From Escherichia phage vB_Eco4M-7, in the sequence record MN176217: a DNA stretch of 64,000 nucleotides. One strand, 5' to 3'. Below are positions 11,578 through 44,143 of this stretch, piece by piece. Every line of letters begins with the position of its first letter. Positions within the stretch are counted from its first letter, which is position 1. A model generated the notes under the pieces. It saw only the letters and a list, made by a program, of their open reading frames with translations. It searched no databases and was not told where the DNA came from. The translations under genes were made by a program, and so were the position numbers.

Positions 11578-13917
11578 TTATTTTGCTGCTTTCAGCGCGG
11601 CTATCTCTGCCTCGAGAACCTCGATGCGGTCCATCAATGCAAGAATAGCCTCGTGGTGCAGTGCTGCTGCTACGCCTGGTGTGTTGACAGATTTTATGTT
11701 ATCCAACGTCGAACCGTCGCGCAGAGTAACAGGCGATGACTGTGTTTCAGATACTGCTTCAGGAAAGTCTTTCTCTACATCCTGGGCGATGAAGCCAAAA
11801 CCGACGGAGCCATTAGTTTCCAGAGTCCATGCCACGCCTCTAATATTGCGCATCTTGACGAGTGGATCAGTGATCCGCTCAATGTTACTTTTAATACGTT
11901 CATCAGATATACTCCGCCACTCCTGACACCTTGCTATTCCATCGGAGCCAAAAAGATAAGAGGCCGCGCCGCCTGTCCCGCTGTAAACGTTCAATTGAGC
12001 GCGGTCCAGCGCGGTCGTGCTACTCCTTATGCCTCCGAGAATCCAGCTTCCGCTGTACCAGTCACCGCTGATTGAGTTTACAAAATTTCCTTCTGGAACG
12101 TTGGCATAGTTTTGAATCCTTATGGCGTTGTTTTCTGCAGCAGCAACGCCTACTGAATTAACTGGGGATGCAACAAGGTCTTTAGACCGGATATATGCAT
12201 CAACAAATATTGTTCCATCAGGGCGCAGAGTTCCAATCTGGGATGTGGAATTTGGCAACACCAATTTGCCATCTTGGTTAAATGCCCACTCTTGCACCCC
12301 ATTAGATATCACCGCACCTTGTTCAGATGTTAATCCATCAATCTTGCCGTATGCCTGCAAGAATGCTTGATACGCGATGTTCGTGCCAATCTTATATTCA
12401 GATTTTACACTACCGCCTCTGACAAGCGTTCCGGTTGCAGGTTTTACTGCGTCACCATTAATGACGCTCCAAGTCGTATTCGCGGCAACAAATCCACCAG
12501 ATGCACGAATCACCCAAACACCTTCAAAGGCATTAGGTCGAATTTCATTCGCATCATCACGTCCATAAGCGCCATTTGACAGCGATGCATCAAAGTTCAC
12601 GTCTACATAATAACCATCAGAAGTCCCGCGCATACTTCCAGCAGTTTTTACTATTTTTGGCTCAAATGCGCCATATCCTCGCGTCACGCCAGAGGTGCCG
12701 AATGCAGTAAGCATAGACACATTAGGTGAACCAGAAATATTTGGTGCAGCACTCTGCCTGACACGACCGTCGTTTGAAGATACACCTCCATCACCACGCC
12801 CGAATAAACCTGGGATTGAGCCTGCTTGAACGCCGTTGCGGTCTGGAACTCGAAATGTAGTTGTGCCGTTGCCTAATGAATACTTGCCGCGTTTCGCTGG
12901 GTCCGCTAACCAATCTGCATCAGCAATAGGCGAAAGCATTTGCGCATATGCCCAAAGTTCAGGCCAATCTGCACGATTGAGTAATTGGCCGTCAGAAACG
13001 ACTTCGTAAGGCTGGATGTAAGCACGACTGTCTCGCAAGTGGAAGTCGCCGACGCCATAGTTCATAACACCGTTCATGCTTGGGCCAACGGTGCCTGTGT
13101 TCACTAAGTTCTCAACCCAACGCTTGGTTGCAGCATCATAATCGTTTACCGGATCACCAGCAAGCGGAGTCGGCCCTTGTGGACGAATATTCAACCAAGC
13201 TTGAGCATTGTCTGCTGATCCTGTGCCGCCCATTGAAGTTGGAACGATGCTTTGATCAGCGACTTGTCCGAATCCAAAAGCAGACTTCATCCCCTGTATG
13301 GTAGTTTGACCTGTGCCGCCATTTGCGACTGGTATAACGCTTTGCGTGTTATAAACTTGAACCCAATCAGACCAGGATGATATATCGACGCTATACAACC
13401 TTTGGTATACTGTGTTTATCCAGTAAGGCGTGTATCTCTGCACACAGCTGTTCGTTGAAACTCCCGTTTGTAAAACTTCAAGTATTCCAGCTTGTTCTAC
13501 AGGATAGTTGAGTGCTGTTGACGCCCCAGCATTAGTCGGTTGGTAATATTGACCGAACCAGCTTCCGTTCAGCGCGTTAAGGTTTATGCCATTAGGAATT
13601 ACGCCAAAGTTTCGGACAGTACCCGTCAAAGTCGCGGCAGTAGTTCGAATGGAAAGCATATCACCAGCCGCCCAAGCACGCGCTGCAGTACCTTCCTGTG
13701 CACGCTGCACGGTCAGGACGTTTCCAACAACGGCTGTTACTGTGACGATTTCGAATTGGAGGCCTGTTGCGGCGTCAACGATTGTCGCCACTACACGCTC
13801 GTTTGCGCCCAAGGTCGGAAAGCCCGACCCTGAGCGAATTGTGATTGTGGTGTCTGAAGTCGTCGTTGGCTGAGCGAGCGCGACCTCAAAGTTGTTTTTG
13901 AATATTAGCCTTGGCAT
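11578..13917 (-). CDS. tail fibre/spike protein with C-terminal intramolecular chaperone (peptidase S74-like) domain
   Basis: 779 aa; Gly/Thr/Asn-rich fibre-like body; C-terminal SDERIKSNIERI...ALMDRIEVLEAEIAALKAAK resembles the autoproteolytic chaperone domain of phage fibres. Confidence 0.7.
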   Translation of the reverse strand: MPRLIFKNNFEVALAQPTTTSDTTITIRSGSGFPTLGANERVVATIVDAATGLQFEIVTVTAVVGNVLTVQRAQEGTAARAWAAGDMLSIRTTAATLTGTVRNFGVIPNGINLNALNGSWFGQYYQPTNAGASTALNYPVEQAGILEVLQTGVSTNSCVQRYTPYWINTVYQRLYSVDISSWSDWVQVYNTQSVIPVANGGTGQTTIQGMKSAFGFGQVADQSIVPTSMGGTGSADNAQAWLNIRPQGPTPLAGDPVNDYDAATKRWVENLVNTGTVGPSMNGVMNYGVGDFHLRDSRAYIQPYEVVSDGQLLNRADWPELWAYAQMLSPIADADWLADPAKRGKYSLGNGTTTFRVPDRNGVQAGSIPGLFGRGDGGVSSNDGRVRQSAAPNISGSPNVSMLTAFGTSGVTRGYGAFEPKIVKTAGSMRGTSDGYYVDVNFDASLSNGAYGRDDANEIRPNAFEGVWVIRASGGFVAANTTWSVINGDAVKPATGTLVRGGSVKSEYKIGTNIAYQAFLQAYGKIDGLTSEQGAVISNGVQEWAFNQDGKLVLPNSTSQIGTLRPDGTIFVDAYIRSKDLVASPVNSVGVAAAENNAIRIQNYANVPEGNFVNSISGDWYSGSWILGGIRSSTTALDRAQLNVYSGTGGAASYLFGSDGIARCQEWRSISDERIKSNIERITDPLVKMRNIRGVAWTLETNGSVGFGFIAQDVEKDFPEAVSETQSSPVTLRDGSTLDNIKSVNTPGVAAALHHEAILALMDRIEVLEAEIAALKAAK

Positions 13918-38953: not shown

Positions 38954-41692
38954 ATGCAAAAGTTTGACACAAACCTGTTGCAAAACCTTAAGTGGATGCA
39001 GAACAACGCGCCAAACATCACATCTTTGGTTCAGAAGAAGAGTGACTGGTATGAGCGATATCAAGATCAGTTTTGGATTGACTGGTACAAGAACATATTC
39101 AACATTGATACTTGTGATGCAATGGGCATCTATATTTGGTGTGACATACTATGCATACCAAGGGATTTTGTTGACTTAAGCAACTATGAGCACAACTGGG
39201 CATTTGGACCCACACGCGACAACTTCGAAGGGCCGGACAATATCGGCGGCAACTTCTTTGGTGCTGGCGGAAAGGTTGTGAAAAACATCGAAGAAGCCCG
39301 CATCCTTCTGAAGCTTCGTTATCTGACGCTTACAAGTGATGGCCGCATAGAAAGCATCAACCGTATGCTTAAGTGGATTTTCAACCGTGGAGAAGATTGG
39401 GATTACTCTTCATCGCGCTACGCATATGTGACAGATAATACTCAAGGCGCGGTGTCTTCTTCTGAAGCAACAAACGGCTCATTCCTTCTGTACGACTGGC
39501 AGGGGTCAACTGAGATTCAGCACGATTATAAACAAGTTCTTTTGAGCCACGGCAACAACGCAGGACTTACCATAAGTGGGGTGGCAGGGACCGTTTCGCG
39601 AATGGCACACCCAGACTGGTATTCATGGGGTAATGGTTCCGGCGCTGGTATTGTCGGCGGTGATACACGACAATATGGCGGCCCTGACTATTACGGCCAA
39701 CTGTGCGGTGACTACCCAGGAGAGGCCATAGAGAATTTCGCCAACGCAGTACGGGTCATCAAGACCGCTTCCAGCGGCGAGCCTGTGTATTCTTTGGCCA
39801 ATAATCCAAGCGCCAAATCTATTGCTCTTCCTTCTCAGGCTGGTGTAAACGTTTGCTATAGCTTCTACATAAAAGTGCTTTCTGAAAACGTGGCTTCTGT
39901 TTCCGTAACAGAGAACAGTGATGCATCGAGTAATGGAAAACTTTTCGACCCAGTGACTGGGCAGTTCAACCTTGACTCTTCTTTGAGTTATTTCATCACA
40001 GGCAAGTTCGACGGTGTGAGAAGGGAATCAAACCGTGGTGGCATCAAGGCAATCGGCGGCGATTGGTACAGAATCTGGATTGTAGAGCAAACTGCAAACG
40101 CGACGGCTGGGGTGAAAACAAGCTTTTCAATTGAGTTGAAAGCAACTGCCGCTGGATCAACCCAGACTCGCGAATTGCCTGAAGGGTCTGATGCGCTTCT
40201 TTTTGGATACTCCATTTGTGTTTGCGACCCTGTTCAAAATCCTAATGGACCTGAGCCTTATTTCTATGGGACTCAAAATCCTCCTGCAGATGGAACGGCA
40301 ATCCTGTCTGTTACGGCAGGAACGCTCAACAACATATCTTGCGCAAACGGTCCGTTGACAACAAGGGATGGCGTGGTAGGTGAATCATTCATGCAGCCTG
40401 GTTCATCGCTTGCATACTCTGGTTCAATCGACGGCTACCCGTACCCAGGAAACGCAACATTGATTGCAGAGACTGACGGCATCAGACGCTCATGGAACGT
40501 TAGCCGATTGGACGGCGTACCGCCGCCGCCGACCGCTGACTATTACATGGAATATGTCATCGGGCCTTATTTCGCCAACAACTTATCCGACAACTTTAAG
40601 ACGCTAGTTGGCGACAGGAATGAAGGATTCTTGCCAGCAAATGCCGGAATACGTTGGCAGCTTTACCAAGAAGTCGCAGACTTATCTGATATTGATTTGA
40701 CTGTCAGCAACATAACAGACACGCGAGTAGGATTCGAAACGGAAGGTGTCGCATGGATTAACACTGACGGCATCATCAGAGTTGGCGGCATAAACGAGTG
40801 GCCGTTGAACAACTTCAAAGGTGTTATACGACAGCTTGAATCTTTGAAAGGTGTGAACCAAGTTATCGACGGCGCACTTGTCAACGACTATTCAATCTCA
40901 AAAGCATCAAGAGATGACTTTGGTCGTGAAATCCCACGTGCCGCGATCACAAACTACTGGCGATACACACAACCCAATGACGGCACATCTTTTGGCAATA
41001 TCGTCAAGGACGGAGATAACACGGTAACGGCGACGCCAATCAGCGGTGTGCCCAACCAGTTCCCATCATTCAAGCTTTCCGCTACAATAGGGACTGTGCC
41101 AGCATCCGGCTATGCACGTGCTGTACTTGCTACTAAATACACTGGCAACCTGACTGGTCCTTTGTCATTTATCGCAATAGTTAAAAACAACACGGTAAAC
41201 GGTCAAAAACTTTTCGTAACCGTACCGGATGGTATGGGCGGCTATATCCCTAAATTCTACAGCATAGGCGCAGGTGATTTGCAACGTATCGAAATTGACC
41301 TTGCCGCTGAGATTGTTGCAGGAACGACTTGGGATGGTTCGACAGGTGGAATCAGCATTGGTTTGATATCAGGGAAAGACTTGCCGACCGAAGTTGGTAC
41401 GACTCTTGAACTTGATATTTTAAGCTTGATGCTTGTTTCTGGTAATACGATGAATGCGCTTGCGATTTCAACAAGCGAAGACTTTGCAAAGAAAACTGCA
41501 ACTTCTATATACATCAAAAACCCAGGGTCACTGGCGACTGGAGTTCAATTGATAGCTTCGAATGGGGATGTTGTAGCGACAGTAAACTTTCCAAGAAGTG
41601 CTGCTGGCGGTTATGTTTCAAGCATGAATATAACTGACTTAACTGGTGATTGGGCATCAACCCTTTTATCAAAAATTAAATACATCGTGTAG
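38954..41692 (+). CDS. large baseplate/tail fibre-associated structural protein
   Basis: 912 aa; Gly/Ser/Thr/Asn-rich; upstream of tail fibre gene. Confidence 0.45.
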   Translation: MQKFDTNLLQNLKWMQNNAPNITSLVQKKSDWYERYQDQFWIDWYKNIFNIDTCDAMGIYIWCDILCIPRDFVDLSNYEHNWAFGPTRDNFEGPDNIGGNFFGAGGKVVKNIEEARILLKLRYLTLTSDGRIESINRMLKWIFNRGEDWDYSSSRYAYVTDNTQGAVSSSEATNGSFLLYDWQGSTEIQHDYKQVLLSHGNNAGLTISGVAGTVSRMAHPDWYSWGNGSGAGIVGGDTRQYGGPDYYGQLCGDYPGEAIENFANAVRVIKTASSGEPVYSLANNPSAKSIALPSQAGVNVCYSFYIKVLSENVASVSVTENSDASSNGKLFDPVTGQFNLDSSLSYFITGKFDGVRRESNRGGIKAIGGDWYRIWIVEQTANATAGVKTSFSIELKATAAGSTQTRELPEGSDALLFGYSICVCDPVQNPNGPEPYFYGTQNPPADGTAILSVTAGTLNNISCANGPLTTRDGVVGESFMQPGSSLAYSGSIDGYPYPGNATLIAETDGIRRSWNVSRLDGVPPPPTADYYMEYVIGPYFANNLSDNFKTLVGDRNEGFLPANAGIRWQLYQEVADLSDIDLTVSNITDTRVGFETEGVAWINTDGIIRVGGINEWPLNNFKGVIRQLESLKGVNQVIDGALVNDYSISKASRDDFGREIPRAAITNYWRYTQPNDGTSFGNIVKDGDNTVTATPISGVPNQFPSFKLSATIGTVPASGYARAVLATKYTGNLTGPLSFIAIVKNNTVNGQKLFVTVPDGMGGYIPKFYSIGAGDLQRIEIDLAAEIVAGTTWDGSTGGISIGLISGKDLPTEVGTTLELDILSLMLVSGNTMNALAISTSEDFAKKTATSIYIKNPGSLATGVQLIASNGDVVATVNFPRSAAGGYVSSMNITDLTGDWASTLLSKIKYIV

Positions 41693-41702
41693 AGGAACGG
41701 CA

Positions 41703-43490
41703 ATGCCAACACTTATTAACAGACCTTTCGCGCAAAGCGGTGATGTATCCGTGGTGCCGGATGCAAGTCCAAGCGGTTATGTGAACTTCCAGCGCGGCTA
41801 CACCCCTGACTATGCACTTGCGCTGGAAGCCGGAAACGTCGCCGCGAAAGCAGTTGAACGTGAGTCGATGAACTGGTTGCTGAATCTGATCACCGACAAC
41901 CTTATGTTCATCCAGGACCACGGCGCTCAACAGTATTTCTCGTCTGACTTGAAGCCAGATGGATACCCGAAAAATGCCATCGTTGTCAGCAACTCTGGCA
42001 CCCCTTCAGCGCCTGAATGGCGCATTTTCCAGAGTGCGGTAGACGGCAACACCAGCGCAGTCCCAGCTAACGGCGAAACGGAATCTTGGCAGGAATTGAC
42101 GCTGCCTAGCGAAGCGAGAAAATATATTCCTATGCCTGCTGGCGGCGATGCGCAAAACCCGTATTTTGTTCGCGGACTGATTTCAAACTTTGTGGACTTT
42201 GATAATATCACGACTTCCACAACTATTGTCATTCAATCTGATGCCGTTGCCGCTCTCTGCTCTAATATCCCGAACGCGGTTGGTGCGACGAAGGTTGCAG
42301 GTCGTCTCCAGGTTTGCGCTTGGCAGGTTAATGCGCAGACTTTCGCCCTGCAGCAATACACGTCAATGAACGGATATGTTTTCACCCGCTCTTATACTTC
42401 TGGTGCTTGGAGTACCTGGATTCAAAATGCTACTGTTCAAGACGTGCAAATTGGAACGCCGAATCTTGCATCAGGTAAAGGCGCACAAGATATAATCCTT
42501 ACCGTTCCAGCAGGTTATTCATGGCCTCCGTCAGCAGGTAGTCGCCTGACCATCGTTAATGATGTCACGACCACCGGACCTGTCACCGTGACCATTGGTG
42601 CAAACAAAGTTGCAGTCCTTGGATTCGACGGCGGCGAGCTGCCAGCAGGGTCCATCGTCGGTCTTCTTCCTTTTACTATTATTTATGACGGCACCGTTTG
42701 GCGTCTTCTTCAAGCATTCGGCGCGGCGCAAATCGGTGTCGATGCTAGTGAGCCGCAACAGTTTGTCACAAAGCGCCAACTCGATGCTTTGGCCGCGAAG
42801 TTGATAACTATGGGTGATGTATTCGAAGTCGGTGAGACTCGATTCTTGACTAATGGCACAAACCCAAATACTAAACTGGGCGCTTACGGTCAGGTGTGGA
42901 CCAGATTGCCTGACAACATGGTCATCAGGACGTCTGGCACGGCAAGAAACGGTCTTGACACTGGAGGTGCAGACTCTGTTACTCTTACCGCCGCCATGCT
43001 TCCTCTGCACAATCACAGCGTTAACATAACTACGCGACAGAGTGGTCCATGGTCCAATACCACTGGAGACGCAGGCAACCATAACCACACAGGCGATACC
43101 AGTCAAAACGGTGCTCACGTGCACGGAATGGATTCAGCAGGCAACCACCACCATGACAGTAGCTGGGGTGAATCGAATACGAATGATGCGCGGTATGGCG
43201 TGTATGATGGGACGCACAACAACTTCGGAAGTCGAAAGGGCGGCGACTGGGACAACTATAAATACAACACCTCAACTAACGGCAACCACGTTCACAATAT
43301 TCAATCTTCTGGGTCACACACTCATGGGTTGAATATAAATTACGCTGGCAATCACAGCCATGGATATACCCTCCCCGCTCACACTCACGATGTGGTCGGT
43401 AACACTGGCAATGCAGGGCAGTCCGTCCCAACGGCTGTTTCAACTCTGCCGCGATATGTCGTCTTGAACGGCTGGTACAGAAGCGCATAA
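41703..43490 (+). CDS. tail fibre protein with C-terminal His-box repeats
   Basis: ATG 41703 after AGAGGAACGG; GNHNHTGD, AHVHG, GNHHHD, GNHVHN, GSHTHG, GNHSHG, AHTHD repeats. Confidence 0.7.
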   Translation: MPTLINRPFAQSGDVSVVPDASPSGYVNFQRGYTPDYALALEAGNVAAKAVERESMNWLLNLITDNLMFIQDHGAQQYFSSDLKPDGYPKNAIVVSNSGTPSAPEWRIFQSAVDGNTSAVPANGETESWQELTLPSEARKYIPMPAGGDAQNPYFVRGLISNFVDFDNITTSTTIVIQSDAVAALCSNIPNAVGATKVAGRLQVCAWQVNAQTFALQQYTSMNGYVFTRSYTSGAWSTWIQNATVQDVQIGTPNLASGKGAQDIILTVPAGYSWPPSAGSRLTIVNDVTTTGPVTVTIGANKVAVLGFDGGELPAGSIVGLLPFTIIYDGTVWRLLQAFGAAQIGVDASEPQQFVTKRQLDALAAKLITMGDVFEVGETRFLTNGTNPNTKLGAYGQVWTRLPDNMVIRTSGTARNGLDTGGADSVTLTAAMLPLHNHSVNITTRQSGPWSNTTGDAGNHNHTGDTSQNGAHVHGMDSAGNHHHDSSWGESNTNDARYGVYDGTHNNFGSRKGGDWDNYKYNTSTNGNHVHNIQSSGSHTHGLNINYAGNHSHGYTLPAHTHDVVGNTGNAGQSVPTAVSTLPRYVVLNGWYRSA

Positions 43491-43498
43491 GGTGATTT

Positions 43499-44143
43499 AT
43501 GATTAATGCAAACGTAATATCTAAAGGGACCGGATGCAGCATGGATGTCGCAGAGGAGTGGGTGGACCCTTTCAAGCAGGCTTGTGAGCACTACGGAATC
43601 AAAAGCAAGAATGCCATCGCGGCGCTGCTTGCAAACGTAGGAGTGGAAACAGGCAGTCTGAAGACCTTTGTGGAAAACTTGAACTACTCCGCTCAAGGTC
43701 TTGCGAATACATGGCCTAGCCGTTACAGCGCCAGCGGTCGTTTCGGCGGCGCACCAAACTCCTTGGCACTGTCGATTGCCCGTAAACCAATGGAAATCGC
43801 CAATAATACATATGCAAACCGAATGGGCAATGGTTCGGTAGCATCTGGCGACGGTTGGAAGTACCGTGGCCGTGGTGCCATTCAGCTGACTGGAAAGGCC
43901 AACTATGCAGAGTATTCAAAGCAATCAGGGTATGACGCATTGAATAACCCTGACATTTTGACTGAGCCGAAATACATCGCTGACAGCGCGGCATGGTTTT
44001 TCAAGAACAGCGGTTGCATTCCACTTGCTGATGCTGGCGCATTTGATTCGACTGTGAAGCGGATTAACGGGGCCGCGCCAAATACGGCTAACCATGGGGA
44101 TTTGCGACGGAAGCGTTACAAGGATGCACTAGCAGTTGTGTAA
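43499..44143 (+). CDS. endolysin, glycoside hydrolase family 19-like
   Basis: 214 aa; WKYRGRGAIQLTGKANY and SAAWFF motifs. Confidence 0.65.
   Translation: MINANVISKGTGCSMDVAEEWVDPFKQACEHYGIKSKNAIAALLANVGVETGSLKTFVENLNYSAQGLANTWPSRYSASGRFGGAPNSLALSIARKPMEIANNTYANRMGNGSVASGDGWKYRGRGAIQLTGKANYAEYSKQSGYDALNNPDILTEPKYIADSAAWFFKNSGCIPLADAGAFDSTVKRINGAAPNTANHGDLRRKRYKDALAVV

Follow-up and report, generated by a model that had tools for sequence, protein, structure and literature searches.

In the long tail fiber tip of phage T4, seven HxH motifs of gp37 bind iron along a needle (PMC12609058); the metal is Fe2+. A tip composed of a collar, a needle and a head, with six or seven HxH motifs, was seen by cryo-EM on both fibers of the Felixounavirus Bas63 (PMC12609058), and the papers on phages Pa223 and A-1(L) likened the tips of gp60 and gp34, respectively, to T4 gp37. 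Korf et al. (2019), who named the genus Wifcevirus, mentioned His-X-His motifs for T4-like phages only, not for WFC or WFH. Recently, Humolli et al. (PLoS Biol 2025) reported that a conserved Wifcevirus fiber, 'Gp32' of ManiWeber (Bas99), ends in a tip that resembles that of T4 gp37 and bears HxH motifs. This tip was seen in an AlphaFold 3 model of the ManiWeber fiber trimer (ipTM 0.64), and the fiber was called highly conserved within the genus (PMC11990801).

We examined an array of His boxes in a window of Escherichia phage vB_Eco4M-7 DNA, the window being the whole 64-kb stretch that was analyzed. The boxes lie at the C-terminal end of a tail fiber gene, and we consider it very likely that they form the receptor-binding tip of the conserved Wifcevirus tail fiber, a homologue of the T4 gp37 needle presumably assembled as a metal-stapled trimer and held by its N-terminus on a Pbunavirus-type wedge. 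The gene and its parts are as follows.

41703 to 43490, plus strand: complete tail fiber coding sequence, 595 aa and a stop codon (open reading frame and translation)
41703 to 42809, plus strand: N-terminal baseplate-docking and shaft region, aa 1-369, similar to Pbunavirus gp47 (phmmer match to Pa193 gp47)
42810 to 43007, plus strand: collar domain, outgoing half, aa 370-435, ending in LPLHNH
43008 to 43154, plus strand: outgoing arm of the needle, aa 436-484, boxes 1-4 (nt 43008-16, 43080-88, 43116-24 and 43146-54)
43155 to 43286, plus strand: putative distal head, aa 485-528, aligning with the head of gp37, located between its H931 and H966
43287 to 43388, plus strand: returning arm of the needle, aa 529-562, boxes 5-8 (nt 43287-95, 43317-25, 43353-61 and 43380-88)
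43389 to 43487, plus strand: C-terminal return strand to the collar, aa 563-595, ending in TLPRYVVLNGWYRSA (family C-terminal consensus compared with the end of gp10; strand in the AF2 model)

The start codon is the ATG at 41703 (MPTLINRP...), as in annotated relatives and in agreement with the Pa193 alignment; both favor it over the GTG at 41646 given by a mechanical list of open reading frames, which overlaps the end of the upstream gene. The gene is the orthologue of Bas99_0031, Bas100_0031 and Mansfield gp051. Since Bas99_0031 is the sole HxH-bearing frame in the tail locus, we equate it with the published Gp32 (the GenBank number is Bas99_0031, not 32). The ManiWeber/Bas99 gene is 91.6% identical to ours at the nucleotide level over its whole length and 91.7% identical in amino acids in the tip, with the same eight boxes; its head has the shorter TDYDNYKF form, unlike that of vB_Eco4M-7. 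A 1,845-nt open reading frame around the boxes is 100% identical in Escherichia phage vB_Eco4M-7n (PP596836.1), genus Wifcevirus, and 87-98% identical across its full length in the other 27 Wifcevirus records, which include FEC19, WFC, WFH, ECML-117, Mansfield and Bas98-101. All 28 records of the genus, therefore, keep the fiber gene full-length at 87-100% identity. In the protein database, a close orthologue is P0071. Relatives annotate the product as 'tail protein' or 'tail fiber', and it matches the tail protein family PHROG 5717 (E=2.8e-175). Among nine Wifcevirus orthologues, pN/pS was 0.03-0.09 outside the head and 0.03 for the N-terminal region (aa 1-369), indicating strong purifying selection. 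In the same orthologues, pS was 0.52-0.61 in the needle and head (43008-43286) and 0.29 in the N-terminal part (41703-42809), a difference of about twofold; the tip may have recombined or may draw on an older pool of alleles, although the protein is conserved.

The first-pass annotation, made from the letters of this DNA, had described at least seven HxH or HxHxH boxes in about 120 residues at 43000-43400. We count eight HxH boxes, beginning at aa 436 (HNH), 460 (HNH), 472 (HVH), 482 (HHH), 529 (HVH), 539 (HTH), 551 (HSH) and 560 (HTH), so that the array spans aa 436-562, or 127 residues (nt 43008-43388). The HxH part of that description thus stands, and the HxHxH part does not: a true HxHxH box is absent from the fiber, the sole triple being the HHH at 482-484, whose middle His is a Tyr (HYH) in ECML-117 and RCIP0319. 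Seventeen of the 19 histidines of the fiber fall inside the boxes, 16 of them as the outer residues of a box and one in the middle of HHH. When the whole protein was shuffled, the mean number of boxes was 0.57 and the maximum 6, and none of 100,000 shuffles reached eight; shuffling the His-rich last 170 aa alone gave a mean of 1.78 boxes, with eight reached in 4 of 100,000 cases. No other open frame in the window has two or more HxH motifs.

The boxes are conserved by position. In the nine Wifcevirus orthologues every box His is invariant and the intervening residue varies (N/S, V/S, H/Y), and H505, the tip His that lies outside the boxes, is replaced by R, N or Q. In alignments of distant relatives of about 30% identity (34 and then 128 sequences), the invariant and near-invariant columns are almost exclusively those of P-x-H-x-H and G-x-H-x-H. 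Among 127 relatives, 91% of the histidines sit in HxH boxes with the consensus GxHxH, and a protein has 5 to 20 boxes (median 9); the eight boxes of the present fiber are, therefore, typical of the family.

We then compared the tip with solved structures. Searched against the PDB with hmmsearch, a profile built from the C-terminal 228 aa and their relatives had its best match among solved structures in the T4 gp37 tip (2XGF; E=5.2e-15), with profile positions 62-276 matching chain residues 14-227, a stretch that takes in the needle, outgoing and returning, as well as the head. Alignment to the C-terminal region of T4 gp37 had been proposed in the first-pass annotation as the check on a resemblance to T4-type long tail fiber tips, and it bears that resemblance out: hhalign against gp37 785-1026 gave a probability of 98.1% (E=7.9e-14, 183 columns) and placed seven of the eight boxes (436, 472, 482, 529, 539, 551 and 560) on the seven of gp37 (883, 915, 929, 966, 980, 989 and 998, in this order), the box at aa 460 being an extra one with no gp37 counterpart. 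With E=8e-5, pairwise BLASTP of the tip against gp37 barely reached significance; the alignment covers 106 aa at 29% identity. The other profile matches in the PDB were the C-domain of T4 gp10 (2FKK, 3e-10), 8KEC (9e-8), 9NXK (1.8e-5) and 9QGO (4e-4). A phmmer search of the PDB with the whole fiber returned the N-terminal match to Pa193 alone; it is the family profile that finds the tip.

Because HMMER reported a strong composition bias (42.9 bits), we ran shuffle controls on the gp37 match. Against the family profile, the real gp37 tip scored 58.8 bits and fully shuffled gp37 tips -18±5. In a more stringent control every GxHxH was kept, and the order of the boxes and the residues between them were shuffled: the needle and head of gp37 scored 52.9 bits, compared with 18.9±6.3 (maximum 36.6) for 500 such box-preserving shuffles. 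About 19 of the 53 needle bits are thus due to the boxes alone, which counts against the gp37 assignment. The real score nevertheless lies 5.4 sd above the shuffles, and so the homology of the needle exceeds the shared His boxes. These controls also bear on whether the clustering of HxH could be a compositional, low-complexity accident or mark an enzymatic metal center. The composition bias itself speaks for the former, and for the latter one may invoke the labels of some relatives ('endoglucanase' in Klebsiella phages, 'microcystin-dependent protein' in some metagenomic sequences). Chance, however, is contradicted by the shuffle statistics, with eight boxes in none of 100,000 whole-protein shuffles, by histidines that are invariant by position next to a free x, and by the box-preserving control; an enzyme is contradicted by the Pfam scans, in which no hydrolase family was matched; and the domain is found consistently at the C-terminal end of tail fibers near baseplate genes. 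We consequently reject both possibilities, which we regard as barely conceivable.

A gp37-type needle homologue remains the reading that we favor, with a qualification regarding the collar. The gp37 collar alone scored 1.7 bits against the family profile, that is, no match, which again counts against the gp37 assignment. The family C-terminal consensus PPYxxVYxWxRTA, in turn, matches the last residues of T4 gp10, IQPYITVYRWIRIA. At the level of sequence, then, the collar of the fiber is of the gp10 type. Collar segments flank the needle on both sides, as in a gp37-type tip whose chain doubles back. The Pfam scan of the whole fiber gave no match, another point against the gp37 assignment, and neither Collar (PF07484) nor Gp10_C (PF21939) was matched by the fiber or by its last 228 aa at E-values up to 10. 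Relatives of about 30% identity do pass Pfam for Gp10_C or Collar, and the profile matches gp10 2FKK at E=3e-10; thus, the tip is a divergent relative of the Collar/Gp10_C families and not a scored member. The only Pfam match of the last 228 aa was to PF14928, the receptor-binding domain of T4 gp12, at E=1.3. This weak match could be taken to mean that the tip is a short-tail-fiber domain of the gp12 type with a single structural zinc site, in which the additional boxes would not be metal sites; the first box, at the end of the collar (LPxHxH), is indeed a motif common to collar-domain proteins, and the BASEL authors suggested a 'mechanical', short-fiber-like role for the conserved fiber (PMC11990801). 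We reject this possibility as very improbable. By sequence, the fiber does not match the gp12 receptor-binding domain.

Structure prediction covered the monomer of the tip. The AF2 monomer of the tip reached a mean pLDDT of 56.7 with the 34-sequence alignment, in which the needle was disordered, and 66.4 with 128 sequences. The collar was modeled at a pLDDT of 78-93, the needle at 50-68 and the head below 50, the weak needle and head counting against the gp37 assignment; the final block reached 93, with a strand at model residues 222-226. Foldseek found gp10 matches alone, all non-significant, with the 34-sequence model. With the 128-sequence monomer model the best PDB match was the gp37-like fiber of A-1(L), 8KEC (E=3.8e-3, probability 0.97), with gp10 entries ranking next, and no significant match to 2XGF was reached. 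The predicted monomer fold is compatible with the sequence evidence.

By analogy with gp37, a path of the chain can be proposed. It would leave a collar of the gp10/gp12/gp37 type (aa ~370-435), run outward along a thin needle through four HxH boxes (aa 436-484), form a small distal head (aa 485-528), return along the needle through four more boxes (aa 529-562) and end in the collar (aa 563-595). The fiber is presumably a homotrimer. As each box gives two imidazoles per chain, six histidines would then enclose a metal ion at the three-fold axis, and up to eight ions could be stacked along the needle, stapling six beta strands that lack a hydrophobic core. Judging by the homology with gp37, the tip is probably metal-stapled in this manner, and the metal may be iron, as in gp37. 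T4 gp37 (2XGF) has the succession of collar, outgoing arm, small head, returning arm and C-terminus in the collar that is proposed for the fiber, with GxHxH boxes on both arms and outgoing arms of nearly equal length (about 47 vs 48 residues); the putative head of the fiber (44 aa) occupies the place equivalent to the gp37 head. The two differ in that the fiber has eight boxes and gp37 seven, box 460 filling a box-free stretch of gp37, and in that the collar of the fiber is nearer in sequence to the C-domain of T4 gp10 than to the gp37 collar. The remainder of the fiber is unrelated to gp37: a single 595-aa chain sits directly on a baseplate of the Mu/P2 or Pbunavirus type. Moreover, the gene downstream encodes an endolysin and not a chaperone or adhesin of the gp38 type, and no tail-fiber assembly or chaperone gene lies between fiber and endolysin. 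The T4 fiber requires the chaperones gp38 and gp57A, and the present tip may likewise depend on one.

The N-terminal part of the fiber points to another group of phages. Residues 2-372 match residues 4-368 of the tail fiber gp47 of the Pbunavirus Pa193 (phmmer against PDB 9b45 chain 2, E=6e-32). In Pa193, gp47 is built of three beads in its first 340 residues, and this part docks by a hydrophobic loop on the wedge protein gp46, which carries the fiber-attachment loop (PMC11042391). The fiber retains the docking loop, GYTPDY-x-[I/L]-x-L, and its L39 and L41 correspond to I41 and L43 of Pa193. The gene just upstream encodes a protein whose N-terminus is homologous to gp46.

38954 to 41692, plus strand: baseplate wedge protein, 912 aa (Pfam DUF2612, E=2.6e-15; aa 4-186 match the Pa193 gp46 wedge 2, 9b45_v, E=1e-41)

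This wedge protein is the probable docking partner of the fiber, whose N-terminal 370 aa would attach it to the baseplate. The homology ends there on the fiber side: Pa193 gp47 has 962 aa, and the alignment gave the His-box tip no counterpart in its distal part (-1.7 bits for the second domain). The neighbors of the fiber gene are baseplate genes of the Mu/P2 type, the order in relatives being baseplate hub, spike, J-like wedge, the 912-aa protein, fiber and GH19 endolysin. The two matches (E=6e-32 for gp47 and E=1e-41 for gp46) thus mark both the fiber N-terminus and the baseplate as Pbunavirus/Mu-like. Neither is of the T4 kind, in line with the first-pass annotation, which had described the N-terminus and the genomic context as not T4-like. 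In the 912-aa protein, solely the first ~186 aa match DUF2612 and the Pa193 gp46 or E217 gp45 wedge (about 500 aa). For the other ~700 aa the sole family assignment is PHROG 4797, whose function is unknown; this part may be an extra peripheral extension of the baseplate or a fiber-like one. The endolysin gene (43499-44143, plus strand), of the GH19 or chitinase class, directly follows the fiber gene. The spanins of relatives are encoded on the other strand, at a distance of ~3 kb; the lysis genes are therefore split.

The window encodes a second tail fiber, which allows the roles of the two to be compared.

11578 to 13917, minus strand: second tail fiber, 779 aa, gp27 of vB_Eco4M-7, with a C-terminal Peptidase_S74 intramolecular chaperone

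This is the 'T-shaped' dual-RBD fiber of the BASEL paper. Its gene is highly mosaic in the genus: coverage reaches 80% or more in only 3 of 38 records, and for Bas100 the alignment extends over 48% of the gene, with 83% identity. Nucleotides 1389-2288 of the gene share ~74% identity with records of vB_EcoS_FFH_1 and phiAPCEc03. Phage vB_Eco4M-7 requires the O157 antigen, rfbE mutants being resistant (PMC11074155); the main text of the same paper, on the synthesis of vB_Eco4M-7, names no LPS-core genes among the resistant mutants. Phages Bas98-101, for their part, depend on the O16 antigen (PMC11990801).

We asked which fiber sets this specificity. Were the needle fiber the primary O-antigen-specific receptor-binding protein, its His-box tip would read the O157 antigen. 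The O157 requirement of the phage would accord with this, as would the fact that the head is the most variable part of the fiber (17 of the 49 variable columns fall in aa 481-540, the head with its flanks). The O16-dependent phages Bas100 and Bas99, however, have needle-fiber genes that share 98.2% and 91.6% identity with this one, respectively. The head exists in two length forms, GGDWDNYKY and TDYDNYKF/SDYDNYKY, and both occur among the O157 phages (4M-7n and Ro157lw vs ECML-117) and among the O16 phages (Bas100 vs Bas99). Furthermore, pN/pS in the head is still just 0.17 among the nine orthologues, and the mosaic fiber is the other one. An O157-reading His-box tip is therefore improbable. 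Since the needle fiber is almost identical in an O157 phage and the O16 phage Bas100, and since both head forms are present in either group, it does not track O-antigen specificity, which is set by the mosaic T-shaped fiber and not by the needle fiber. This in turn argues for a conserved role of the needle fiber. Most likely, its head contacts a conserved surface structure, or the fiber acts at a later step or mechanically, in line with the suggestion of the BASEL authors. A more specific scheme can be put forward tentatively, with more doubt than confidence: the needle fiber could be a second-step fiber for irreversible binding and triggering. After the T-shaped fiber has engaged the O-antigen, the head, of which at least two allelic forms exist, would bind a conserved structure such as the LPS core or an outer-membrane protein, and the eight stacked metal ions would stiffen the needle and help signal to the Pbunavirus-type baseplate.

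The two Wifcevirus fibers are thus separated by role, one hardly differing between phages specific for O157 and for O16, the other mosaic. Consequently, in engineering phages of the vB_Eco4M-7 type for detection or therapy, it is the T-shaped fiber that should be swapped and the needle fiber that should be left in place.

These results confirm the gp37-type needle as a portable module, carried here by a Pbunavirus-like fiber on a simple baseplate. Outside Wifcevirus, the closest relatives of the tip are the Felixounavirus fibers (Bas63 gp27 and gp26, Felix O1 type), whose tips align with 99% of its 228 aa at 30-34% identity; their N-terminal shafts and baseplate-binding domains differ from those of the Wifcevirus fiber, and they bear the tip on both fibers, whereas Wifcevirus bears it on one only. 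More distant profile matches to the tip are Pa223 gp60 (9NXK), A-1(L) gp34 (8KEC) and the fiber of the Photorhabdus PVC (9QGO), for which the likeness is that of the profile match. The carriers are in these cases a podovirus, a cyanophage and a contractile injection system, and the numbers of boxes differ. At least 6,236 database protein clusters match the family profile at E≤1e-5. As the module is widespread, and the gp37-like tip with HxH boxes was already published for Wifcevirus in 2025 (PMC11990801), its presence in vB_Eco4M-7 opens no new question.

Some records of relatives deserve mention. Among the homologues of the His-box tip in phage records MW722080, NC_054965, MF612073 and MG065664, those in Klebsiella phages carry the annotation 'endoglucanase', probably a misannotation. 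A record named Campylobacter phage A132 contains a tail-fiber tip similar to the Felixounavirus matches, and it looks as if this record is mislabeled or contaminated. Finally, many metagenomic relatives of ~265-270 aa (P0023, P0031, P0062, P0072 and others) consist of a collar and an HxH needle and are annotated as 'microcystin-dependent protein'; these show that the module of collar and HxH needle also exists as a short stand-alone protein outside recognizable phage fibers.
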